Shown: one piece after another, positions 2,796-38,689 of the stretch
Layout of the letters: each line of letters begins with the position of its first letter
Numbering within the stretch: position 1 is the stretch's first letter
Source of the DNA: a virus
Lineage: Duplodnaviria > Heunggongvirae > Uroviricota > Caudoviricetes
Strand: one strand, 5' to 3'
IMG/VR virus record: IMGVR_UViG_2778261576_000004
Location: 1-41,372 of that record
Length of the DNA: 41,372 nt
Program-made: the position numbers and the translations under genes
Notes under the pieces: model-generated
What the model saw: only the letters and a program-made list of their open reading frames with translations
Database searches by the model: none
What the model was told of the DNA's origin: nothing

Positions 2796-3737
2796 TTACA
2801 TAGATGTTTCGTTTAATTCTTCCCGACGAACGCTGTAAACGTCGGTGGCTTTTGCCAGCAGTTCGTCATCATCTGAAAGTTTTTGTGCAATGTATTTGTA
2901 AGCCTTATCCAGTTCGGAGACAGTGCTGTAATTCATCGCTGCGCTGGTAAAGGCCATCAGCATTTCTTCTGGATCACGGCTGTCCGATTTACGCGTTTGC
3001 TCATCAGGCTTTTTCGCTGGTTTAGCGTTGATCAGACTGTTCATTCCCGCAGCAGTGGTCGTTTGCGGAGTAATGTCTCGCTCAACGCGCGGTGCCGTTT
3101 CCTGTAATTCGTCTGGGGTGTAGACGCCCATGATTACGTCAGGACAGTGCAGGCGAGACCAGCGTTTTGTCGCAAGGTATGCGAGTTGTTGTTTCGGATC
3201 ACTGGCCCAAAGTGTGGAGTTTCTTACCTGTGCTTGAGACAGCATTAACTCAAGCACTCGAGGTTGATCCTCGCCCTTCATGGTTGCCCATACGCGAACA
3301 CCGCAGCCTTCTTCGTCTTTTAGAGTCCAGCCTGGTGCGATATATGGATTGCCGTTTTTGGATGTTTTCTCAACAAACTTACCGATCACGCGTTCCCACG
3401 GCCCGAACCACTCGTAGTTGATGCGATCTTTTGTTGGCGACATCGTTGAGATAACTGCGTTTACTAATTGGGCTTCATAACCTAGCGTGCCGTTCACAAC
3501 ATGGGTTTTCTGAGCCACGGCAAACGGGTTCATTCCCCACTGCGCAGCCTGCATTGCCACGGCCATGCAATCAGCTGGTTTCCCGGCGAGGTGCGCCGGT
3601 ACCGTTACGCGGCTTTGCGCCATTACCTCGGCGAATTTCATCAGTTGGTTCAAGCCGTCTGGGCTGAAAATAGTTGCAGCAGTTCCAGCGATTGCTGTGT
3701 CTACTGGTGCGTTGATGTTTGCGATGTCGTTGCTCAT
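2796..3737 (-). CDS. recT: RecT-family single-strand annealing recombinase
   Basis: About 313 aa with RecT-like sequence (NGTLGYEAQLVNAVI..., acidic C-terminus); start at the ATG giving MSNDIANI, overlapping the exonuclease stop (ATGA). Confidence 0.85.
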   Translation of the reverse strand: MSNDIANINAPVDTAIAGTAATIFSPDGLNQLMKFAEVMAQSRVTVPAHLAGKPADCMAVAMQAAQWGMNPFAVAQKTHVVNGTLGYEAQLVNAVISTMSPTKDRINYEWFGPWERVIGKFVEKTSKNGNPYIAPGWTLKDEEGCGVRVWATMKGEDQPRVLELMLSQAQVRNSTLWASDPKQQLAYLATKRWSRLHCPDVIMGVYTPDELQETAPRVERDITPQTTTAAGMNSLINAKPAKKPDEQTRKSDSRDPEEMLMAFTSAAMNYSTVSELDKAYKYIAQKLSDDDELLAKATDVYSVRREELNETSM

Positions 3738-4555
3738 ATGTACATATCCTGTTTGCGTGCCCACTCAGGGCGTTTAATGATTTCCACACCGCCCCATTCA
3801 TCATTGATGCGGCATTCGTGATAGGTATTCAGATCCCGGCGGAACAGAGCGTGCCCGGCATCGACATCCTGCGCATCCAGCTCGAACACGCGTACCGGAT
3901 ACCGACCACAATCAATGCTTTCGCTCACGGCAAGAAAGAAAAAACCATGCGGCTGACCAGTAACCCTCATTGCGCCTTCGCGGTACATTGCGTCCTGCAC
4001 GTGGTAGCGGAATTCCTCGATGTGGCGTGCAAAACGGTCCATATCTGCAACCTTTTTCACGTCGACGATCACGTTGTGCTCGTTCAGCCATTTGTCTGGA
4101 CGAATTCGGCACAACTCCCCCGTCTCTTCATCGTTCCAGTACATTGATGCTTCGCAGTAACCAGGTGCTTCCAGCATCCAGCGTGCCGCCGGGTGAGCCA
4201 TTGCGCTATCACGCATCAGCTCCAGTTTCCGCCACTGCTCGGCATCAAGTACCGTAATCCCCATATCCGCCACATCACGAAGAAATTCCTCTTCGTCAGC
4301 TTTACCTTGTTTCGTCCGACGATCGAATTTCGGTGAAACAATGAAGCGTTTGTCGAACTCTCCAGGCTCCAGAAGCAGACAGTGCAATGCGGTTCCCATA
4401 TCCAGTGCAGACTTTTTCTCTTCGTCTTCTGGTGCTGCCTGAACCCATTTAAGAAGCGCCGGATTCTTGGCAACCATGTCCAGTTGCGACTTACTCACGC
4501 CGTCACCGGCGTGGTAGTCTTCGTTGCTGATGTCGAAATAAATTCCCGGTTTCAT
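3734..4555 (-). CDS. PD-(D/E)XK exonuclease (RecE/exonuclease VIII-like partner of RecT)
   Basis: 273 aa directly upstream of and coupled to recT; D...D-V-K motif (IRPDKW...VIVDVKK) typical of PD-(D/E)XK nucleases. Confidence 0.7.
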   Translation of the reverse strand: MKPGIYFDISNEDYHAGDGVSKSQLDMVAKNPALLKWVQAAPEDEEKKSALDMGTALHCLLLEPGEFDKRFIVSPKFDRRTKQGKADEEEFLRDVADMGITVLDAEQWRKLELMRDSAMAHPAARWMLEAPGYCEASMYWNDEETGELCRIRPDKWLNEHNVIVDVKKVADMDRFARHIEEFRYHVQDAMYREGAMRVTGQPHGFFFLAVSESIDCGRYPVRVFELDAQDVDAGHALFRRDLNTYHECRINDEWGGVEIIKRPEWARKQDMYI

Positions 4556-5025: not shown

Positions 5026-5102
5026 TTACCGTTGAGGTAATAATTATGCGTATATGGTTTGATGTCAATAGATATGAGTTAAAAAAATTACCCGTTAGGT
5101 AA
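5026..5102. promoter_or_regulatory. OL-like operator region: two TTACC-N5-GGTAA palindromes (5026-5040, 5088-5102)
   Basis: Two perfect 15-bp palindromes in the intergenic region between the repressor gene and the first leftward early gene. Confidence 0.5.
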
Positions 5103-5159: not shown

Positions 5160-5744
5160 TTATTGTTTGTTTTTTTCGTTCTGGTTGATGACAAATTCAA
5201 TGTAACTTTCGATCTTTGCTTTCTCGGTTTCGGGTAACAATGCGTAGCGCGAGCGATCATAGTTGATGGTCGCAGGGTCGTGCGGGTGAATCAGTAATTC
5301 ATAGCCGTGACGCCCGAATGCGGATGCAACATTCTCCAGGGTGGAAATGGAAACGCTGACCTCATTGTTTAACAGGCGGCTGATTGTCACCTGGGCTACG
5401 CCGGATGCGCGGTGAAGTTTTCCCTGTGTTGAAAGGTCGCGGCTTTCGCTCATCCAGCGTTCCAGGTTGTGAGCCGCCAGCTGGCCAATGTCGCTTGGGC
5501 CGACAGGCTGAAAACCTTCCTGAGAAAGCGAGCGATCGATATCAAGCCAGTTACGGGGTTTATTGGCGGCAGCTTCAATTTTTCGCGCAACCTGATCGCC
5601 GATAACCTTCTTACCAAGAGCCCAGCGGTTTACCAGATTTGCCTGAGTTCCAAGTTTTTCAGCCATCCGCGTCTGAACACCATTGAATTCACGGTCGATC
5701 AAGTCGTTGAGATTTTGCCTGCGGACGTCCTGGATACTTTTCAT
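5160..5744 (-). CDS. Putative prophage repressor (CI-like, tandem HTH, no S24 peptidase domain recognisable)
   Basis: 194 aa; two HTH-like segments (GVQTRMAEKLGTQANLVNRW and GVAQVTISRLLNNE); sits between OL-like and OR-like palindrome pairs, divergent from a Cro-like gene. Confidence 0.55.
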   Translation of the reverse strand: MKSIQDVRRQNLNDLIDREFNGVQTRMAEKLGTQANLVNRWALGKKVIGDQVARKIEAAANKPRNWLDIDRSLSQEGFQPVGPSDIGQLAAHNLERWMSESRDLSTQGKLHRASGVAQVTISRLLNNEVSVSISTLENVASAFGRHGYELLIHPHDPATINYDRSRYALLPETEKAKIESYIEFVINQNEKNKQ

Positions 5745-5799: not shown

Positions 5800-5862
5800 T
5801 TACCCAACAGGTAAATGCACCTCATGGGTAACTATCCTTGATTTTTGTTACCTTATGGGTGA
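5800..5862. promoter_or_regulatory. OR-like operator region: palindrome 5800-5814 (perfect) and 5848-5862 (one mismatch)
   Basis: TTACCCAACAGGTAA and TTACCTTATGGGTGA in the 154-bp divergent intergenic region between repressor and Cro-like genes. Confidence 0.55.
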
Positions 5863-6175: not shown

Positions 6176-6279
6176 TATCTATTCGTACCTCAAAGGTAAT
6201 AAAAAACCAAATATGGTTGATCTTTTTTTTGTGTCAGCACAAAATGACCGTAATCCCAATACTAATAACAGGGCTTACC

Positions 6280-8130: not shown

Positions 8131-8207
8131 TTACCTGTTAGGTAATAAAATATTCTAAAATCTATTGATTTCGTGTCTTATGTGGTTTTTAATTACCTCA
8201 GAGGTAA
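8131..8207. promoter_or_regulatory. Two palindrome copies (8131-8145, 8193-8207) plus a TATGTGGTT box (8179-8187) upstream of the 8211 gene
   Basis: Perfect TTACCTGTTAGGTAA and TTACCTCAGAGGTAA; the second ends 3 nt before ATG 8211 and overlaps the SD. Confidence 0.45.
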
Positions 8208-9447: not shown

Positions 9448-10317
9448 ATGACCAAAATTAACTATCAGGCACTGCGTGAAGCGGCAGAAAAGGCAACACC
9501 AGACGAATGGGTCGCATTTATTTCGACGGATACTGGTACTTATGCGGTGCACACGCCCGGTGATGAACGATGTGAAGACGTTATCAAATGGACCGGCTTT
9601 GATGGACAGAAAAATGCAGAGAACAACGCTCGTTATGTTGCCGCGTTCAACCCAAAGGTTGCACTGGAGCTGCTTGGTGAAATTAAGCGCCTGGAGGACA
9701 CAAATATTGATGCTATGTGTCGAATTGCAGAGCTTGAGACTAATCTCGCGGCGCTGGCAGCGGAGAATGCGGCGCTGAAGGCCGGGGCTATGTATTTCTC
9801 ATATGGCTCTGAATTTAGTTTCGAGTGTCACAAAACTGCTGAGGAGGCTATCGCTGCTGCTGAGGCTGCAATTGACGACTATAGAGGCGATGCTTGCGAT
9901 GGATGGAGCGAAGAGGTCGAAAGCATTTGCTGGGGGGTAATTATTCAGCAGGCAACCAAGGTCGGTGAACGCAAGAAGAGGAAATGCGACAGAGTATCAC
10001 CATGGATTGAAAGAGTTTGTGATTATGAGCTTCGACCTAATGTCGAAACCCCAGCCACCGATGCTTTCCTGTCTGAAATTCGTGCGGAAGCACGCAACGA
10101 GGGGATTAACTATACCGCCAGCCGTCTTGCTGCTGCGTTCAATCACGGATTTATCAATAAGTCTTTACGTGAAGTTTTCGACGTTACACGCATGATTTTG
10201 TCAGCGAAAGAAGAGTTGGCTAATGAAGCGCATCCGATTGATGGCCTGTCTGGTGAATATGCGGAGAAATCCCTTGAAGAATGGGCGGAACAGATTCGCA
10301 AAGGAAGCAGCCAGTGA
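9448..10317 (+). CDS. ead/Ea22-like family protein (paralog 2)
   Basis: N-terminus MTKINYQALREAAEKAT typical of ead/Ea22-like proteins; contains the ALAAENAALKA and ATDAFLSEIRA modules. Confidence 0.7.
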   Translation: MTKINYQALREAAEKATPDEWVAFISTDTGTYAVHTPGDERCEDVIKWTGFDGQKNAENNARYVAAFNPKVALELLGEIKRLEDTNIDAMCRIAELETNLAALAAENAALKAGAMYFSYGSEFSFECHKTAEEAIAAAEAAIDDYRGDACDGWSEEVESICWGVIIQQATKVGERKKRKCDRVSPWIERVCDYELRPNVETPATDAFLSEIRAEARNEGINYTASRLAAAFNHGFINKSLREVFDVTRMILSAKEELANEAHPIDGLSGEYAEKSLEEWAEQIRKGSSQ

Positions 10318-13925: not shown

Positions 13926-13940
13926 TTACCACAACGGTAA
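13926..13940. promoter_or_regulatory. TTACC-N5-GGTAA palindrome upstream of the terminase small subunit gene
   Basis: Perfect TTACCACAACGGTAA between the terminator and ATG 13958 (17 nt upstream); a partial repeat (CTATTACCAC) follows. Confidence 0.45.
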
Positions 13941-13957
13941 CTATTACCACGGTGGTT

Positions 13958-14554
13958 ATGATGCCTGCTGAACCTAAAACCTATAAACGCAAATCAACGC
14001 AATTTAAGCCGCTCACAGCAATGCAGGAGGCTTATTGCCAGTCATACATCAAAACGCCTGAAAACCAGACTCAGGCAGCGATTAACGCAGGATTCTCCCC
14101 AAATACAGCGGCAGTTAAAGCCAGTGTCATGATGCGCGATGAACGCATTCAAAAACGGATTGCCGAGTTGATGGAGGAGCGCAACAAACGAATGCGCGTC
14201 AGTGCTGATTACGTTCTCATGCGCCTGGTGGAGATCGACCAGATGGACGTGATCGACATCCTCAACGACGATGGGAGCCTTAAGCCAATCCGCGAGTGGC
14301 CGAAAATCTGGCGCACTACGCTTAGTGGCTTTGATCTGTCATCGACCATCATGAACATGAACGAGGATTCGATAGAGACAATCCTCAAAAAAATTAAATG
14401 GCCTGACAAGGTGAAGAACCTCGAACTGATTGGTAAGCACGTCGACGTCAACGCGTTCAAAGAACGCCTGGATGTTAATGTGAATGTGACAATTGCTGAT
14501 CGCATAGCGGCAGCCAGGAAGCGACTCAAAGAACGTCAGGATGGTAATCAGTGA
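13958..14554 (+). CDS. Terminase small subunit
   Basis: Directly upstream of and coupled to the large subunit; HTH-like N-terminus (TAMQEAYCQSYIK...AAINAGFSPNTAAVKAS). ORF-track start 13880 rejected because it spans the terminator. Confidence 0.65.
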   Translation: MMPAEPKTYKRKSTQFKPLTAMQEAYCQSYIKTPENQTQAAINAGFSPNTAAVKASVMMRDERIQKRIAELMEERNKRMRVSADYVLMRLVEIDQMDVIDILNDDGSLKPIREWPKIWRTTLSGFDLSSTIMNMNEDSIETILKKIKWPDKVKNLELIGKHVDVNAFKERLDVNVNVTIADRIAAARKRLKERQDGNQ

Positions 14555-16686: not shown

Positions 16687-16763
16687 TGGCGTGGCATGCA
16701 GGATTCGAACCTGCGACCAACCGCTTAGAAGGCGGTTGCTCTGTCCGACTGAGCTAATGCCAC
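16687..16763 (-). tRNA. tRNA-Arg (anticodon UCU)
   Basis: Minus strand folds by hand into a cloverleaf: acceptor GTGGCAT/ATGCCAC, D-arm GCTC/GAGC, anticodon stem ACCGC/GCGGT with loop CTTCTAA, T-arm GCAGG-TTCGAAT-CCTGC, encoded CCA. Confidence 0.85.
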
Positions 16764-17085: not shown

Positions 17086-17165
17086 TTACCTGAAAGGTAA
17101 TAATTCACGCGTTAAATGTCAACCTTCTACGATAAATAAATCATATGTGGTTAAATTGGTAATAA
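17086..17165. promoter_or_regulatory. Palindrome (17086-17100) plus TATGTGGTT box (17144-17152) and GGTAATA (17159-17165) upstream of the portal operon
   Basis: Same arrangement as upstream of the tailspike gene (35438-35502). Confidence 0.45.
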
Positions 17166-28819: not shown

Positions 28820-31800
28820 TGCCGATATATGAACAGGATCCTAAAGAGTTGCTTGGCGAGGATATTCAGCAAATAGCAGCACCTGATGACAGTAATTTCT
28901 ATATGGAAACACCTTCTTTGCTTTCTGCTGTGAACCCATTTACCAGTGATCAACGCGTTCAAAGGTCTAGACAAGCAGCATTTCGTATAGATAACACGCT
29001 GGGTAGCTTTATTGCCAGTGCTCCTTTCAGTCAGTTTGACAGGGTTGAAGGATATAACCCATTTGATAACGATGCAGCAGATATTAAAGGCTATGAAGAT
29101 TTTGCAGATTCGTTTATCAACTCCGGTTCGCCTGAAGAAACAATGGCAATTAAACATCGAATCGATCAGCAGAGAGCTGACATGGAATACAATTCAGGCT
29201 TGGGATTTGCTGGTACAGTCTCTTCTGTAGCAATGAGATTAGCAGATCCATTCAATGCGATTTCTATGTTTATTCCGTTCGGCGCTGTTGTTCGTGGCGG
29301 TCGTATTGCAGAAACAGCCGGGCGTTTTGCCCTGGCGAATGCTGCTGGCAGTGTTGCTTCAGAGGCCGCATTACAGGCCACTCAGGAAGCTCGCTCACCG
29401 ATGGAGAGCGTATCGAACGTTGTTGTTGATGCTCTCGTTGGTGGGATCCTTGGTGCTGGTGCACAGCTACTTGCTGGACCTGGCGCGCGCGAGGCAGTGG
29501 TTAACTCAGTAGGTAATCATTTGCGAGGTATGGATTCTCCTCAAAGCATTGGTGCAGCTCAGGTTTTCAATACCACACTCGATCAGGAACAGCTCGCTGG
29601 ACTTGGACTTGCTAACAAAACGTTGAGTGTCACTCCTGCTGGCCGCTTGGCGCAATCACCATCTCTTGTCTCCCGTCAGATTAACCAGCAGCTTGCCGAA
29701 AATAACTATTTCTTCGCCAAAAATGATGAGGGGTTGGCTACGTTTACGGCAGTCGAGACTAAGATTAAGCAATACGACGCCATGCTTTATAAGCAGATGG
29801 AAGCCACTCGTGATGCTTACCAGCAGTACAGCAAATCTGTTAGCGCCCGCGGCGTGAAGAGGATGAACTTTATTGATTTCAATGAAGCTGTTGGCATGGC
29901 TATGCGCCGTGGTGATCAGAGTGATATTCCTGAGGTTTCACAAGCAGCCGCCAGAATCCGCCCCATTTTCGAGACCACAAAAGCCCGTATGCAGGAACTG
30001 GGGATCCTTCCTGAGGATATCGATGTCGTGACGGCGAAAAGTTATCTTCCCCGCATTTATAAGTTCGATAAGATACTTTCCGACCGCACTGAATTCAGAG
30101 GGCGAATTGCCAACTGGATACAAGGGATTAGTGCCAAAGGTGCTGACAAAGCAGGTCAGCGAATTGAAAGGATAAATTCATTGCTAAAAACTGCAGAGGA
30201 ATCGGCACCGCGCGCTGATGCTCTCGCTAGTGAAATCGCTGAAGCGGAGAAATGGTCTGGTAAAAAAATTCTACTCATGGAAGAACTGGATAAACGAAAT
30301 AAGCTTATATCTCAGGAGACTGACACACAGGCGCGTCTTACAAGAATAGAAAAAGAGTTGGCCGAGACTTCATCAGAAAAACTTCAGGCAAGAATGATGA
30401 AAGAAAGCTCTGACCTTAAAACACGCCTTGATGATATAGCGCAGGCAAAGAGTGAGCTTCCTGTCTATCAGCGCCATATGGAGTTGTTGGATAATCCACG
30501 GAAATATCGTTCTGAGCTTCGCCGACTGCAAAAACGGGCAAATTCAACCACAAGGCTGAATGCAAGCCGCGAACGAGCACTGAAGCAGATGGAGCCTCTA
30601 TCCCGAGAGGAAGCAGAGGACGCTGCTGACGAGATCGTGAATAAAATAATAGGCGCACCTTCCGGGCTTGTACCAGCCGATATTATCCCAGAGAGACTCG
30701 TTGGTCGGGCTGGTTTCACTAAAAGCAGAACGCTGCTTATTCCTGATGAGCGTATAGAAGATTTTCTTGAATCAGATGTTAACTACATCATGGAAAGTTA
30801 TCTCCGGCAGGTGGCACCAGAAATTGAGCTGACTGCGCAGTTTGGCCGTAAAGATATGGGGGAGCAAATCCGTCAGGTTAGTGAGGAATATACCCGGCTA
30901 ATAAAAGAGGCTAAAACACCTAAACGACGTGCAGTTCTTGAGAAGCAACGGGAGGCTGATATTAGGGATATTACGGCTATGCGTGATCGACTGCTTGGTA
31001 CTTACGGTGCACCTCAAGATCCACGCAGTTTCTTTGTTCGTGCCGGGCGAGTTGCTAGGAATATTAACTTCCTCCGTTTGCTTGGTGGAATGACCGTCTC
31101 CGCTGCAACTGATCTGATGCGACCGATGATGCAGCATGGCCTGAGAAAATCTCTCGGACCAATGGTAAGCATGCTTAAAAATATGGACTCAGTGAAGATT
31201 GCAACCAGGGATTTGCGAGAAATGGCCGTTGGGCTTGATTATGTCCTGTCTACGCGTACAAAGGCTATAGCGGATCTTACTGACCCATATAGCCGGAGAA
31301 GCGCCGCTGAGCGAGGCCTGAACTGGATGACGCAGAAATTCGGTAACTGGACGCTGATGAATCAGTGGAACAGCGCACTTAAATCATGGTCTGGGATGAT
31401 AGTGCAGTCGAGGATACTTGACGCGGCTCGCCAAGTTTCTGCTGGTGGCACGCTCTCCAAAAGTGAAATGCGGAAGATGGCACAGGTCGGCATCAATGAA
31501 GATGTTCTGCGTCGAATCGGGGAGCAATTCGGGAAGCACGGAGAGGATATGGACGGGCTGTTAACCGGGCATAGTCATCTGTGGGATGACCGTTTCGCTA
31601 GAGAGATTTTCCAGTCTGCAGTGCTGAAAGATGTAGACTCAGTGATTGTAACGCCTGGCGTAGGTGATACACCGCTGTTTTTTAGTAAAGAAGGCTGGAA
31701 GATGATCACGCAGTTCAAAACGTTTATCTTCGCACAGCATAACAGGGTGCTAGTATCTGGTATCCAGCAGGGCGATGCTGCATTCTATCTTGGTGCGCTT

Positions 31801-32208
31801 GGCACGATTGCGCTTGGCTCAATGGTCTATATGATGAAACAGAAGTTAAGCGGTCGCGATATCGACTACAGCTGGAATAACCTTGTGAAAGAGGGGATCG
31901 ACCGGGGCGGAATGCTTGGCTGGCTCTCTGAGCCGCTGAATACCGTTGAGAACATAAGCGGCGGTAGGTTTGGTCTTGGCGCGATGTTTGGTGCGCCTCC
32001 GGTATCAAGGTTTCAGAGTCGTAATGCTATTGGTGCTTTACTTGGTCCTACCTTTGATCTTGGCGGTGATGCCGCGACGGTTGCGAATGGTGTACTTAAC
32101 GGAGAATTTGACAGCCAGCAAACCCACGCGGTCCGTAAAATGCTACCTTTTCAGAACCTGTGGGCGATATCACCGTTACTAAATAAAGTTGAAGAGCAGA
32201 TGAAATAG
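28819..32208 (+). CDS. Putative internal virion (ejection) protein D-like
   Basis: 1129-aa ORF in the gp16 position; long coiled-coil regions and hydrophobic Gly/Ala-rich stretches. Confidence 0.55.
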   Translation: MPIYEQDPKELLGEDIQQIAAPDDSNFYMETPSLLSAVNPFTSDQRVQRSRQAAFRIDNTLGSFIASAPFSQFDRVEGYNPFDNDAADIKGYEDFADSFINSGSPEETMAIKHRIDQQRADMEYNSGLGFAGTVSSVAMRLADPFNAISMFIPFGAVVRGGRIAETAGRFALANAAGSVASEAALQATQEARSPMESVSNVVVDALVGGILGAGAQLLAGPGAREAVVNSVGNHLRGMDSPQSIGAAQVFNTTLDQEQLAGLGLANKTLSVTPAGRLAQSPSLVSRQINQQLAENNYFFAKNDEGLATFTAVETKIKQYDAMLYKQMEATRDAYQQYSKSVSARGVKRMNFIDFNEAVGMAMRRGDQSDIPEVSQAAARIRPIFETTKARMQELGILPEDIDVVTAKSYLPRIYKFDKILSDRTEFRGRIANWIQGISAKGADKAGQRIERINSLLKTAEESAPRADALASEIAEAEKWSGKKILLMEELDKRNKLISQETDTQARLTRIEKELAETSSEKLQARMMKESSDLKTRLDDIAQAKSELPVYQRHMELLDNPRKYRSELRRLQKRANSTTRLNASRERALKQMEPLSREEAEDAADEIVNKIIGAPSGLVPADIIPERLVGRAGFTKSRTLLIPDERIEDFLESDVNYIMESYLRQVAPEIELTAQFGRKDMGEQIRQVSEEYTRLIKEAKTPKRRAVLEKQREADIRDITAMRDRLLGTYGAPQDPRSFFVRAGRVARNINFLRLLGGMTVSAATDLMRPMMQHGLRKSLGPMVSMLKNMDSVKIATRDLREMAVGLDYVLSTRTKAIADLTDPYSRRSAAERGLNWMTQKFGNWTLMNQWNSALKSWSGMIVQSRILDAARQVSAGGTLSKSEMRKMAQVGINEDVLRRIGEQFGKHGEDMDGLLTGHSHLWDDRFAREIFQSAVLKDVDSVIVTPGVGDTPLFFSKEGWKMITQFKTFIFAQHNRVLVSGIQQGDAAFYLGALGTIALGSMVYMMKQKLSGRDIDYSWNNLVKEGIDRGGMLGWLSEPLNTVENISGGRFGLGAMFGAPPVSRFQSRNAIGALLGPTFDLGGDAATVANGVLNGEFDSQQTHAVRKMLPFQNLWAISPLLNKVEEQMK

Positions 32209-32649
32209 CTATTCACAATTAGTGATGGCGTATGTATCAAATATATTGCCATCACTAAATACATACCTATACTCAATCACTCCGCCAAGGTGAATAAATG
32301 CTTTCATTTGCCTGTTGGAGCAAATGCTCGATTTTGAATAATTTCGCATTACACTCTTTAATTTATTTTCTAAGGTTACATCACCATTATAAACTTTTGA
32401 TAAATAGCTGTTGTTGTAATTAAGATGCGCTACAACTAAAAGTTTGTTTAGTATTGCATTTATTGAAACAATAGACATATTATCATTCAATTTTATGGGA
32501 AGTGACTTTCCTGCTTCTGATGCAATTTTGTTTGCATGTGCACACATATCCTCATTTATTAAATTCTTAAAACATATGTCGTTTGCAAACGAAAAAATTG
32601 GTAGGATAAACAAAACGGTAGCTGTAATAGCGTGCATCGGCTTAATCAT
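32209..32649 (-). CDS. Hypothetical secreted protein (AT-rich accessory gene)
   Basis: N-terminal signal-peptide-like segment (AITATVLFILPIFSFA); strongly AT-rich coding sequence; convergent with the upstream virion gene. Confidence 0.4.
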   Translation of the reverse strand: MIKPMHAITATVLFILPIFSFANDICFKNLINEDMCAHANKIASEAGKSLPIKLNDNMSIVSINAILNKLLVVAHLNYNNSYLSKVYNGDVTLENKLKSVMRNYSKSSICSNRQMKAFIHLGGVIEYRYVFSDGNIFDTYAITNCE

Positions 32650-33309: not shown

Positions 33310-33401
33310 TGTGAAATTTCCATCTATAAGCCACCTCAATGTGGCGTCAATGAGTGTAGCACTGACTTTTGTTTCGCCCACAAAAAAGCCCGCAGCGCGG
33401 G

Positions 33402-33842
33402 CTATTCTTCTTCATCATTAAAAAGCGGATTGTTGTTTCCATCTGATGAAAGGAAAGGTATGTGTTCTCTTGAAAATCCAACAATGACAATTTCATTATC
33501 ATTTTTTGCATAATGAATGCATTCATTAGAATGCCTTCCGCCAGGGTTGAAATTTAAGTTAATGGTATAATTCTTAAATGTGTTTGGATACCATGTTGGC
33601 CCACAATGATAATGCCAATAATTCTCTTGCTCATAATTGTCTGAGCCGGGAATTTTATCATGGTTATCATCAACCCACGAGGGCTTGTTTTTTCCAACAA
33701 GCGCCCTTCCATTGGCAACATCCTCTAAAAAACTTTGTATGATTTTTATTTCATCATCAGTAAGGAAAGGTCCGTCTACAGCGAAAGGGGTGTTGCTTTC
33801 CCCATGTAGAAAACTATTAGATATTCTAATGTTAAACTTCAA
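33402..33842 (-). CDS. Hypothetical protein (AT-rich, probable TTG start)
   Basis: TTG at 33842 preceded by CAGGAG SD; AT-rich; downstream partner of the 33863-34030 gene. The ORF-track N-terminal extension to 33983 overlaps the better-supported small gene. Confidence 0.4.
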   Translation of the reverse strand: MKFNIRISNSFLHGESNTPFAVDGPFLTDDEIKIIQSFLEDVANGRALVGKNKPSWVDDNHDKIPGSDNYEQENYWHYHCGPTWYPNTFKNYTINLNFNPGGRHSNECIHYAKNDNEIVIVGFSREHIPFLSSDGNNNPLFNDEEE

Positions 33843-33862
33843 GGAAAACTCCTGATGTGCTT

Positions 33863-34030
33863 CTATTTGGAGCGAAATGCCGCCTTGAAGTCGCTGAAAG
33901 ATGTTCCTGTCTGGTAAACCATATCCTTGTCGCGCTCTTTGCTTGCGCGGCCAAGCATAACTTTTCCAATGACATCCCAGCATTGCTTGGCTTGTTCATT
34001 GTGCTGAGTACGATTTTTCAACGCTGTCAT
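33863..34030 (-). CDS. Hypothetical small protein (55 aa)
   Basis: ATG 34030 with a strong AAGGAGG SD 6 nt upstream and a palindrome copy directly 5' of it; translation MTALKNRTQHNEQAKQCWDVIGKVMLGRASKERDKDMVYQTGTSFSDFKAAFRSK. Confidence 0.4.
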   Translation of the reverse strand: MTALKNRTQHNEQAKQCWDVIGKVMLGRASKERDKDMVYQTGTSFSDFKAAFRSK

Positions 34031-34042
34031 ATCGCGCCTCCT

Positions 34043-34057
34043 TTACCTTTAAGGTAA
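34043..34057. promoter_or_regulatory. TTACC-N5-GGTAA palindrome at the 5' end of the small-gene cassette
   Basis: Perfect TTACCTTTAAGGTAA abutting the SD; upstream on the minus strand are a TTGCAG -35-like and TACTAT -10-like hexamer with 17-bp spacing. Confidence 0.4.
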
Positions 34058-34129
34058 TAGTACGCTATTCACCCACAGTCTGCAATCTGTACAGAATTAT
34101 TTAAAGGCACATCCCTGTGCCGCCGCCCG

Positions 34130-34786
34130 TCAGAAGAACCCAGCCTTGTCGTTGATGTACTCCGCGTGGGTCTGGATATCACGCAGGCATTTGCTCACAC
34201 CAACAATGTAGCAGAACATGGTGGTCAGCTCCGCCGCCGCACCCGATACGTCGTGCCCGTCTTCCTGTAACTGGTTCAGCAGATTCATCAGCAGTGAGTT
34301 CTCCGTCAGGCCGAGAACACCAGACGGCGAATGAATCAGGCTACGGTAGCCGGGCTTCAGTGGGGCGCTGTATTCTTTTTTGTCTTCCAGCTTGATCGCC
34401 TCCATAATGGCGGGCATGAAGCCTGACAAGACCTTCTCCACTTTTGTTTCTTGTTGTCTTAAACGTTTCTCGCATTCAATGAAGTAGCGTCGCACCTGGC
34501 GACCTTTTTCGTTACGCTCGACCATCGCCAGCTCTTTGGCTGTATCAAGGGTGAGGTGGTACTCTTTGCGGTTGTGGCCGCCTCTACCAGATGTTTGCTT
34601 TCCCAAATTGGAAAGCAAAATATAGTCTTGATTTTCAATGAATTCGTATTCTGATATGCGATTTGTAATCCATGCTGCAAACACCTTTTTAACACCTAAA
34701 AAAGCGTGCAGATCGCGGGCATTACAAAGTAGGGCTGTTTCGTTAGATATAGTGCCGTTGAATACGGGGATGAGTTGAGCGTTCAT
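34130..34786 (-). CDS. Phage antirepressor (AntA/AntB-type N-terminal domain)
   Basis: N-terminus [38 protein letters not shown] matches the AntA pattern as recalled; C-terminal domain shared with the 35104-35361 product; GGAGA SD. Confidence 0.7.
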
Positions 34787-35103
34787 GATGGCGTCTCCAC
34801 TTAGCGAATTACATCACCACCGCTGAGACCAATCAGATGGTGGTGAACTGAACGGAGTTGGTCTTACCGGCCTAAGTGGTACCGGCGTCCTTTCGGACCC
34901 CCATTCAGCCCACCATAATTCTGGCATGACTGTGCTATACGCATAAAAAAACCACGTCTGGCGTGGTATGCGCCACTTAGTAATCCGGGAGACCAATCCC
35001 GGCACTGGATTTTGCCAGTGCCCGATTACTATGGCACAAGAGGAGTGCGATGTAAATTTACCGCAAAGGTAAATATAAGCACTCCTTTTGGTAATTGCAA
35101 ACC
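34787..35103 (-). other. Structured non-coding leader/spacer with intrinsic terminator
   Basis: Several perfect hairpins (e.g. CCGGGA-GACCAA-TCCCGG, CACTGG-ATTTTG-CCAGTG), a minus-strand terminator (CCACG-CCAGA-CGTGG then T7) near 34943-34964, and a palindrome copy (35058-35072) nested in an 8-bp stem (AGGAGTGC/GCACTCCT). Confidence 0.4.
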
Positions 35104-35361
35104 TTATCTGGTTTGTTTACGTAATTGTTCGGCACAATAGTCGAGATGTGTTTGCAGATCCCGCATAGACATCTGTGAGCTGGTGACGTAGTTAATCAGT
35201 GCAGTCAGTTCGGCAAGTGGGCCATCGACATTAAATCCATCCTTATCGAGCTCCCGGAGTAATTTCATCAAGTGCGATCCCTCCACCAGTGATCTGACGC
35301 CTCCCGGCGTGTGAATCCTTTCGGTAAATCCGTCTTCCAGTGGATAGTGATACTGCTGCAT
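35104..35361 (-). CDS. Small protein homologous to the antirepressor C-terminal domain
   Basis: ...TPGGVRSLVEGSHLMKLLRELDKDGFNVDGPLAELTALINYV... aligns by eye with ...[42 protein letters not shown]... of the antirepressor; ATG 35361 with GGAGAA SD (ORF-track TTG at 35379). Confidence 0.45.
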   Translation of the reverse strand: MQQYHYPLEDGFTERIHTPGGVRSLVEGSHLMKLLRELDKDGFNVDGPLAELTALINYVTSSQMSMRDLQTHLDYCAEQLRKQTR

Positions 35362-35437
35362 CTTATCTTCTCCATGCAATAACTGTATATTTATACAGTA
35401 TCAAATAATTTGTTTGCTATCCAGCACGTTTTGAAAA

Positions 35438-35502
35438 TTACCTGAAAGGTAATATATATTCGTATTTACAGCCTTTCTATCCATATGTGGTTTTACAGGT
35501 AA
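35438..35502. promoter_or_regulatory. Palindrome (35438-35452) plus TATGTGGTT box (35484-35492) and GGTAATA in the divergent region upstream of the tailspike gene
   Basis: TTACCTGAAAGGTAA is identical to the copy upstream of the portal operon. Confidence 0.45.
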
Positions 35503-35556
35503 TAGAATAACCAGATATGCGGCGCAACGGGTGCTGCGACTATCTGGAGATTTAAC

Positions 35557-38284: not shown

Positions 38285-38689
38285 ATGTCAGCTCAACTAA
38301 CCAGTGAAACTTTAAATCAGTGGCTTAGCATGAGTTCTCTGGCGGCGGTGATAGCAGGAGTTCCTCCTGAGGTTGCTTTGGGGGCTTTGGCTGGGGCGGT
38401 AATTTTTGTTACCTCTGCGGTAGAGTATCCTATTCGTCGTCGTGTACTCTTGTCGATGCTTAGCTTTCTCTGCGGCCTTCTTTTTTATAAACCAGCAGCA
38501 TCAATTCTTATCGGCATAGCCAGCCTGATCCCTACCATCACGCAGGACTCTTTTGAAAAAGGGATTGTTTTCTCAGCTGGCGCATTCGTGTCAGCAATTG
38601 TTGCTGTGCGTATTGGTATATGGCTCTATCACCGTTCCGATAATCCACGCGAGTTAATTCCGGGGAGAAAAGACGATGGTAACGCATGA
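38285..38689 (+). CDS. Putative holin or holin-associated membrane protein
   Basis: Multiple predicted transmembrane segments; immediately upstream of the second membrane protein and endolysin. Start ambiguous (GTG 38276 or ATG 38285); a 14-codon uORF with strong AGGAGG SD starts at 38263. Confidence 0.4.
   Translation: MSAQLTSETLNQWLSMSSLAAVIAGVPPEVALGALAGAVIFVTSAVEYPIRRRVLLSMLSFLCGLLFYKPAASILIGIASLIPTITQDSFEKGIVFSAGAFVSAIVAVRIGIWLYHRSDNPRELIPGRKDDGNA

Follow-up and report, generated by a model that had tools for sequence, protein, structure and literature searches.

A probable two-channel antirepressor region in a Uetakevirus, with a stand-alone Ant protein beside a larger protein that ends in a homologous domain

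Introduction

The Ant–Rep antirepression system of phage SPC32H, reportedly described by Kim and Ryu in 2013 and by Kim et al. in 2016 and represented in the PDB by entries 5D50 and 5D4Z, pairs a small antirepressor, Ant, with a phage repressor, Rep. Here we consider a locus that encodes two proteins with a domain of the Ant kind, a small one of 85 aa and a large one of 218 aa, in a virus sequence of 41,372 nt (IMGVR_UViG_2778261576_000004, positions 1–41,372). We refer to this whole stretch as the window and number all its features from its first letter, marking the minus strand by (−); the site studied is 34130–35361 together with its flanks. The window is a member of the genus Uetakevirus (epsilon15/phiV10 type) and is 98.9% identical to phage phiv142-3 across the antirepressor region. 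The locus is best read as a two-channel antirepressor, or secondary immunity, region of a temperate podophage of this type, and it is probable that its two antirepressors act on one repressor through their homologous domains, the small one gated by LexA and DNA damage and the large one by an isrK/C4 RNA switch.

Several described systems bear on this reading. Entry 5D50 holds SPC32H Ant crystallised with its repressor, deposited under the molecule names ‘Anti-repressor protein’ and ‘Repressor’; PMC9638917 describes Ant as a tetramer that binds two Rep dimers, and PMC7380047 describes production of SPC32H-type Ant after LexA cleavage. In P1, the C4 RNA blocks expression of a secondary antirepressor (PMC8198154), and for Gifsy-1, activation of translation by IsrK provided in trans has been shown (Hershko-Shalev et al. 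2016, PMC4825925). In phage ZX5, overexpression of ORF4 lowered the lysogen titre from 1e9 to 1e6 and cut the rep transcript by 75% (PMC9782041). We take Ant–Rep binding, LexA control, IsrK activation, C4 repression in P1 and the ZX5 ORF4 phenotype from this literature; homology, domain architecture, the LexA box, RNA families, RNA covariation, purifying selection and the restriction of the domain to phages with Rep were computed here. As far as could be found, the literature holds no prior description of the domain relationship between the small and large proteins.

Two adjacent genes share a homologous domain

The large antirepressor gene occupies 34130–34786 (−) and encodes its 218 aa from an ATG, and the small one, ant, occupies 35104–35361 (−) and encodes 85 aa from an ATG preceded by GGAG, a 91-aa version with a TTG start also being present in the list of open reading frames (ORFs). 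The initial annotation had placed these two ORFs side by side on the same strand, with a small product that resembles the C-terminal part of the large one and lacks its AntA domain, and in all of this it proved right. Residues 2–75 of the small protein align with residues 137–210 of the large one with 32 identities in 74 positions (43%), 61% positives and no gaps (BLASTP, E 3e-21). AntA (PF08346) is matched in Pfam by residues 22–92 of the large protein (91.8 bits against a cut-off of 27), and in the small protein no AntA match was seen at E up to 1, which places the latter outside the AntA/AntB family; a search of Pfam and NCBIfam returned nothing for it. PHROG 450 extends over the entire small protein (E 6e-48) and over residues 135–216 of the large one (E 4e-36), and the AlphaFold models of both predict a common four-helix pattern, offset by 135 residues. 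At the level of sequence, the similarity is real homology, far beyond chance. Both proteins also match chain E of PDB 5D50, the 86-aa ‘Anti-repressor protein’: the small one over residues 2–84 against 3–85 (E 5.5e-47) and the large one over residues 137–213 (E 4.6e-14).

Within the large gene, the AntA N-terminal domain (about 34511–34723, −) is followed by a helical linker and by the Ant-like C-terminal domain (about 34148–34378, −), which we call the C-domain. PHROG 377 spans the full length of the protein, and close homologues carry the name antA/AntB antirepressor family protein. A profile search against 1.84 billion representative proteins recovered the Ant-domain family as 60 clusters, whose members are either stand-alone proteins of ~81–96 aa or the C-terminal end of longer proteins, the fused N-terminal domains (N-domains) being AntA, Bro-N, Phage_pRha and ORF6N (the last two in the wider database) and, in phage TL-2011b, P22_AR_N. 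The occurrence of the shared domain both alone and, in a larger gene, behind another front end and a small-RNA switch is an ordinary modular arrangement in the Uetakevirus group.

The small gene is the core member of the pair

The small protein is 88% identical to the product of the SPC32H gene annotated ‘ant’ (tblastn), and its gene has the same position as in SPC32H, divergent from the tailspike gene and beside virion genes. SPC32H, epsilon15 and SPN1S have no other antirepressor gene in this place, the large partner being absent there and in several other phages, and the small gene's ratio of non-synonymous to synonymous substitution (dN/dS) is 0.05–0.08, which denotes purifying selection stronger than that on the corresponding domain of the large protein. 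Together with the 88% identity, these observations argue that the small gene is a core, self-sufficient antirepressor and not a truncated derivative. The initial annotation had called it a truncated paralog that could modulate or antagonise the full-length protein; neither part of this proposal is supported, the first in view of the high identity to a stand-alone Ant together with the distribution and selection just described, the second in view of the self-sufficiency of the gene in phages that lack the large partner. We also rejected the candidate explanation that the small gene is a decaying fragment, since it is intact in 35 phage records, is under the selection given above and is the only copy in SPC32H. 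On comparative sequence grounds, the small gene is the core member of the pair and the large gene its accessory, mosaic member.

A putative, near-consensus LexA (SOS) box, TACTGTATAAATATACAGT, lies at 35382–35400, with 22 nt between its end and the initiation codon of small ant downstream. A search for CTGT-N8-ACAG gave three matches in the window, among which this is the sole AT-rich, consensus-like one, and the alignment shows the box 5' of ant to be kept in SPC32H, phiV10 and Tyrion. With such a box in its promoter, the small Ant would be made after DNA damage, and by homology the gene would be the SOS-linked induction switch of these E. coli prophages. This would fill an annotation gap: the small gene is termed ‘hypothetical’ in the E. 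coli Uetakeviruses phiV10, phiv142-3, ZX5 and TL-2011b, in which only the large gene is called an antirepressor.

Rep and the C-domain of the large protein

The phage repressor Rep is encoded at 5160–5744 (−). It matches chain A of PDB 5D50, ‘Repressor’, over its full length (E 4e-42), is 41.8% identical to the SPC32H protein annotated ‘rep: repressor’, and is the presumed common target of both antirepressors.

For the large protein, the evidence centres on the C-domain. In E. coli phages whose Rep is 98.5–100% identical to that of the window, the C-domain is 91–100% identical whether it stands behind AntA, Bro-N or P22_AR_N, and its core retains 100% amino-acid identity in three N-domain contexts despite a synonymous divergence (dS) of 0.1–0.4. 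Beyond this group its identity moves with that of Rep, being 74% in Tyrion (Rep 78%) and 53% in Klebsiella phages (Rep 45%). All 34 of the 34 phage records with the C-domain fall among the 37 with a Rep homologue, and its dN/dS of 0.03–0.29 denotes purifying selection. The N-terminal 90 residues of the large protein, in turn, are 94% identical to antirepressors of Shiga toxin (Stx) phages, whose C-terminal ends differ. Phage ZX5 (vB_EcoP_ZX5) has a Rep identical to that of the window, and its ORF4 consists of a Bro-N domain and a 94% identical C-domain. Taken with the match to 5D50 chain E, the swaps of N-domains, the tracking of Rep identity, the co-occurrence with Rep, the selection, the contrast with the Stx phages and with AnrP of Gifsy-1, and the phenotype of ZX5 ORF4 make it most likely that the C-domain is the Rep-specific working part and that the N-domains are interchangeable; we infer that the large protein would bind Rep through this domain. 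A function can thereby be offered for the uncharacterised C-terminal part of common E. coli ‘AntA/AntB family’ proteins, namely that it is probably a repressor-specific domain.

Rep may also act at the antirepressor locus itself. The palindrome TTACC-N5-GGTAA, with at most one mismatch, is present in the window in 14 copies where 0.66 would be expected, clustered around rep and at several promoter regions (5026–5040, 5088–5102, 5800–5814, 5848–5862, 6185–6199, 8131–8145, 8193–8207, 13926–13940, 13944–13958, 17086–17100, 34043–34057, 35058–35072, 35438–35452 and 38409–38423). The copies are often paired, 48–62 bp apart, and flank the rep gene. The copy at 35438–35452, TTACCTGAAAGGTAA, lies in the divergent promoter region between small ant and the tailspike gene, and in SPC32H, phiV10, Tyrion and Kp4865-1 it has invariant half-sites around a variable spacer; that at 35058–35072 abuts the −35 hexamer of the isrK promoter, where GGTAAAT-TTACA is kept in the aligned Uetakevirus loci. 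The palindrome is found at equivalent places in every Uetakevirus locus, its half-sites being invariant also in those whose Rep is 42–45% identical, and it is absent from Gifsy-1. We infer that the set probably represents Rep operators. With probable operators at both antirepressor promoters, Rep would probably repress its own antagonists too (compare C1 at P1 immI).

A probable RNA gate between the genes

The space between the two genes is occupied by candidate regulatory RNAs. A promoter scan located a promoter-like site, PisrK (TTTACA, 17 nt, TG-CATAGT), at 35028–35056 (−), and its predicted start at ~35021 coincides with model position 1 of a match to isrK, the small RNA (sRNA) that carries the a1/b1 target element of C4 (34945–35021, −; Rfam RF01394, 67.7 bits, gathering threshold 50). 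The same region matches RF03163, c4-a1b1 (‘a1, b1 targets of C4’), with 39.9 bits, below the gathering threshold of 46.7. It contains b1 (34990–34996, −), a1 (34973–34980, −) and an intrinsic terminator of isrK (stem 34951–34967 plus U-run, −); between the small gene and isrK no terminator was found. Next follows a C4-type antisense RNA (34836–34920, −; RF01695, 61.2 bits, gathering threshold 45), in which folding and complementarity define the elements a' (CCACUUAG, 34872–34879, −) and b' (AGACCAA, 34858–34864, −), and then the leader of large ant (34795–34833, −) with b2 (UUGGUCU, 34826–34832) and a2 (CUAAGUGG, 34797–34804), the latter overlapping the Shine–Dalgarno sequence GGAG of the large gene (34795–34798). 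The C4 loop a' is complementary to CUAAGUGG twice, as a1 in isrK and as a2 in the leader; UUGGUCU, the complement of b', likewise occurs both in isrK, as b1, and in the leader, as b2.

These elements were compared in an alignment of six loci, those of the window, phiV10, Tyrion, Kp4865-1, Phi05 and Gifsy-1, across which a1/a'/a2 and b1/b'/b2 change coherently three ways, with four a types and three b types. The b target and its C4 partner read UUGGUCU and AGACCAA in the window and Tyrion, UUGGCGU and ACGCCAA in phiV10, Gifsy-1 and Phi05, and UUGAGAC and GUCUCAA in Kp4865-1. The a target and its partner are CUAAGUGG and CCACUUAG in the window, CUAAAAGG and CCUUUUAG in phiV10, CUACAAAGG and CCUUUGUAG in Tyrion, Kp4865-1 and Phi05 (the isrK a1 of Tyrion and Phi05 being CUACAGAGG, with one G–U pair), and AUCACCG and CGGUGAU in Gifsy-1. 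Such covariation gives strong comparative support to a functional antisense gate like that of P1 immI.

A conserved coupling ORF of the orf45 or icd kind was sought and rejected, the frames differing among phiV10, Gifsy-1 and the window, in which the Gifsy-type frame is closed. A different ORF, of 37 codons at 34814–34927 (−), overlaps C4 and stops 28 nt short of large ant; its amino-acid sequence is not conserved. The conserved item at C4 appears to be the RNA and not a peptide.

A model with two channels, and its alternatives

In the first channel of the model that we favour, the 85-aa Ant would be made from its LexA-box promoter after DNA damage and, by analogy with SPC32H, would as a self-sufficient tetramer bind Rep and release it from DNA. 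In the second, the 218-aa protein most likely inactivates the same Rep by means of its diverged Ant domain, and the gate would be RNA instead of LexA. A promoter 3' of the small gene would transcribe isrK with its own terminator, and read-through past that terminator would yield both the C4-type antisense RNA and the ant mRNA. Pairing of a' and b' with a2 and b2 in the leader, where a2 covers the Shine–Dalgarno sequence, would block translation; a1 and b1 of IsrK would be decoy copies of these targets, and IsrK may switch translation on in trans, as in Gifsy-1.

Several points weigh against this model. The Ant domains of the two proteins are just 43% identical, so that they could recognise different surfaces or partners. 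Since every carrier of the C-domain is a Uetakevirus, shared ancestry confounds its co-occurrence with Rep, and the experiment on ZX5 ORF4 involved strong overexpression of a glutathione S-transferase (GST) fusion (PMC9782041). In phiV10 a frameshift disrupts the large gene, and PAS61, BUCT554, BUCT711 and all Salmonella members lack it, so that it is dispensable, or accessory. The ATG equivalent to that of orf45, at 34916, meets a stop after three codons; with the coupling ORF of Gifsy-1 not in frame here, the mechanism of IsrK activation may differ in detail. Finally, a Foldseek search of the AlphaFold models against the PDB gave no significant match for the large protein. The small Ant, run as a control and 88% identical to 5D50 chain E, gave none either, and we therefore consider this null result uninformative and did not use it. 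The failure to retrieve 5D50 for the small Ant may reflect a monomer model unlike the chain in its oligomer, or a chain outside the reach of the library, and negative fold searches with small, helical proteins that oligomerise call for caution.

The low identity between the domains also lends itself to another view, in which the Ant domain of the large protein is directed at a different repressor, that of a heteroimmune Uetakevirus or of another resident prophage, and serves anti-immunity or cross-talk between prophages. The gene is accessory and mosaic, with an N-terminal part close to that of Stx phage antirepressors, and Salmonella offers known cases of antirepressors acting in trans to cross-induce prophages (PMC3121763, PMC7380047). 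We nevertheless judge this unlikely, given that C-domain identity changes in step with that of the resident Rep among the lineages of E. coli, Enterobacter and Klebsiella, that no phage record lacking this Rep family has the domain, and that ZX5 ORF4 lowered lysogeny of ZX5 itself, a phage with the Rep of the window. Alternatively, the small protein might act mainly on the large one, the two co-assembling through a shared and normally tetrameric domain so that the small partner modulates or poisons the large one or is itself modulated. The homotetrameric state of SPC32H Ant (PMC9638917), the identity and common predicted helix pattern of the two domains, the adjacency and shared orientation of the genes without a terminator between the small gene and isrK, and the presence of three Ant-domain proteins in TL-2011b and HEMP4 are all in keeping with such an assembly. 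Set against them, the small protein works alone in SPC32H, most relatives from Salmonella, Klebsiella and Enterobacter likewise lack the large partner, the small protein is the more conserved of the two, and in ZX5 a protein of the large type has antirepressor activity on its own; moreover, the two clades are 36–45% apart in every genome and give no sign of the co-evolution of a heteromer. We hold co-assembly as the main role of the small protein to be quite improbable.

It might also be supposed that the shared domain is only an oligomerisation module in the large protein and that the regulatory activity, such as DNA binding or an action on some other target, resides in the N-domain of AntA, Bro-N or Rha type. 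Domains of the Bro-N and KilA-N type are generally held to be DNA-binding. The ZX5 paper takes the same view (PMC9782041), the Ant domain is the tetramer core in SPC32H Ant (PMC9638917), and five unrelated N-domains are fused to it. A generic module, however, would not be confined to Rep-bearing phages, the exchange of N-domains leaves the C-domain 91–100% identical in phages with the same Rep, and the same classes of N-domain occur with other C-domains under other repressors, in Gifsy-1 AnrP and the Stx phages; this reading is very improbable. All three alternatives are disfavoured by the distribution of the genes, by the covariation and by the ZX5 data, and the action of both proteins on one Rep through homologous domains remains the reading we prefer.

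One extension of it, a speculation to which we give little credence, is that SOS-gated small proteins and RNA-gated large proteins form mixed tetramers by way of their common Ant domain, so that two or three independent signals would be integrated in a single repressor-stripping complex. If this were true, the AntA, Bro-N and P22_AR_N heads would each contribute some further trait, for instance DNA tethering or altered reversibility, and the antirepressor paralogs would constitute a combinatorial decision device and not redundant switches.

Related loci and neighbouring features

The large antirepressor of phiV10 is probably a pseudogene, since its Bro-N protein has a C-domain that is divided between two frames, PhiV10p23 and p22 (3500–3747 of that locus). 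Three Ant-domain proteins are encoded by TL-2011b, within 31060–32244, 33423–34115 and 35263–35520 taken together: the small Ant and two fusions, one to Bro-N and the other, behind an Arc-like repressor gene, to P22_AR_N. The ~1.1 kb between its small ant and its Bro-N gene is annotated just as ‘similar to hypothetical protein’. HEMP4 likewise encodes three (1603–2256, about 33806–34069 and 34832–35086). In many E. coli prophages, a 216-aa protein with AntA and the C-domain is encoded beside the integrase gene, ~4 kb from the same 194-aa Rep gene. In guaA-adjacent E. coli prophages (9870–9959 in our locus L011, and also in L012–L014), the 216-aa protein lies between an MT-A70 methylase gene and the integrase gene and is preceded by a match to sRNA-Xcc1 (RF02221, 62.9 bits) in place of isrK/C4, which would give this protein a leader of a third kind.

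Downstream of large ant in the window are two ORFs of unknown function within 33402–34030 (−), one of 55 aa (PHROG 8607) and one of up to 193 aa (PHROG 5954), for which Pfam and NCBIfam gave no match. The operator-like palindrome at 34043–34057 lies upstream of the pair, and a bidirectional terminator is found at 33387–33403. The gene in the equivalent place in TL-2011b, gp44, is labelled a YafO-family toxin in its record. The window also contains a tRNA-Arg gene (anticodon TCT; 16687–16763, −), and Gifsy-1 too has a tRNA-Arg near its isrK locus.

Comparison with known systems

The first channel has its counterpart in SPC32H, which shares with the window a small Ant of about the same length at the position divergent from the tailspike gene, the LexA box and a homologous Rep. 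It differs in that its Rep is just 42% identical and in having neither isrK nor C4 nor a second Ant-domain protein. For the large protein, ZX5 ORF4 is the sole experimental test of a protein of this type. ZX5 belongs to the same genus, has the identical Rep, and carries the gene in the same place downstream of small ant and isrK–C4; unlike the protein of the window, ORF4 has Bro-N instead of AntA, and its authors, who report 39% overall identity to ORF8 of phiv142-3, did not identify an antirepressor in the small gene (PMC9782041).

The setting as a whole recalls the immI region of P22 (arc–ant–mnt, with sar RNA), which likewise combines secondary immunity, a location beside the tailspike gene and additional levels of control over an antirepressor. 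The window lacks arc, mnt and sar, its control RNAs being isrK and C4, and the likeness to P22 is carried further in TL-2011b, by an Arc-like gene and a P22_AR_N protein that ends in the same Ant domain.

The RNA gate of the second channel has two described relatives. Gifsy-1 (isrK–orf45–anrP; PMC4825925) shows the same order of promoter, isrK with its terminator, C4-like RNA (STnc1160) and antirepressor gene, with both RNAs above the Rfam thresholds and a/b complementarity in both loci. In Gifsy-1, however, orf45 overlaps anrP through an ATGA, a frame that the window does not have, and the cassette is not preceded by a LexA-controlled small ant; the window in turn has no isrJ and no antQ context. 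AnrP was rejected as a homologue of the large Ant: it has no BLASTP similarity to it, shares the class of N-domain at the profile level, and differs in its C-domain and in the repressor of its phage. The resemblance is therefore one of the RNA cassette and not of the protein, the N-domain class alone being common to both. The cassette can accordingly be seen as a portable gate placed before unrelated antirepressors, a view that may be useful for predicting the inducers of serotype-converting and O157-associated prophages.

The immI operon of P1 and P7 (c4–icd–ant1/2) likewise has a C4 RNA with a' and b', an upstream a1/b1 and a downstream a2/b2, and controls a downstream antirepressor; both regions have a small antirepressor (in P1, Coi, the C1 inactivator) and a large one, and an operon that probably carries an operator for the primary repressor. 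The window differs in having no icd and in that its a2 lies over the very ribosome-binding site of ant. Homology between the two antirepressors, present in the window in one shared domain, is absent between Coi and Ant of P1, and the window proteins are unrelated to P1 Ant beyond the general class of domain. Both genes of the window are of known kinds and the locus is already present in published phage genomes, and current concepts are unchanged; among the systems compared, its small Ant stands with that of SPC32H, its large protein with ZX5 ORF4, and its RNA gate with those of Gifsy-1 and P1.

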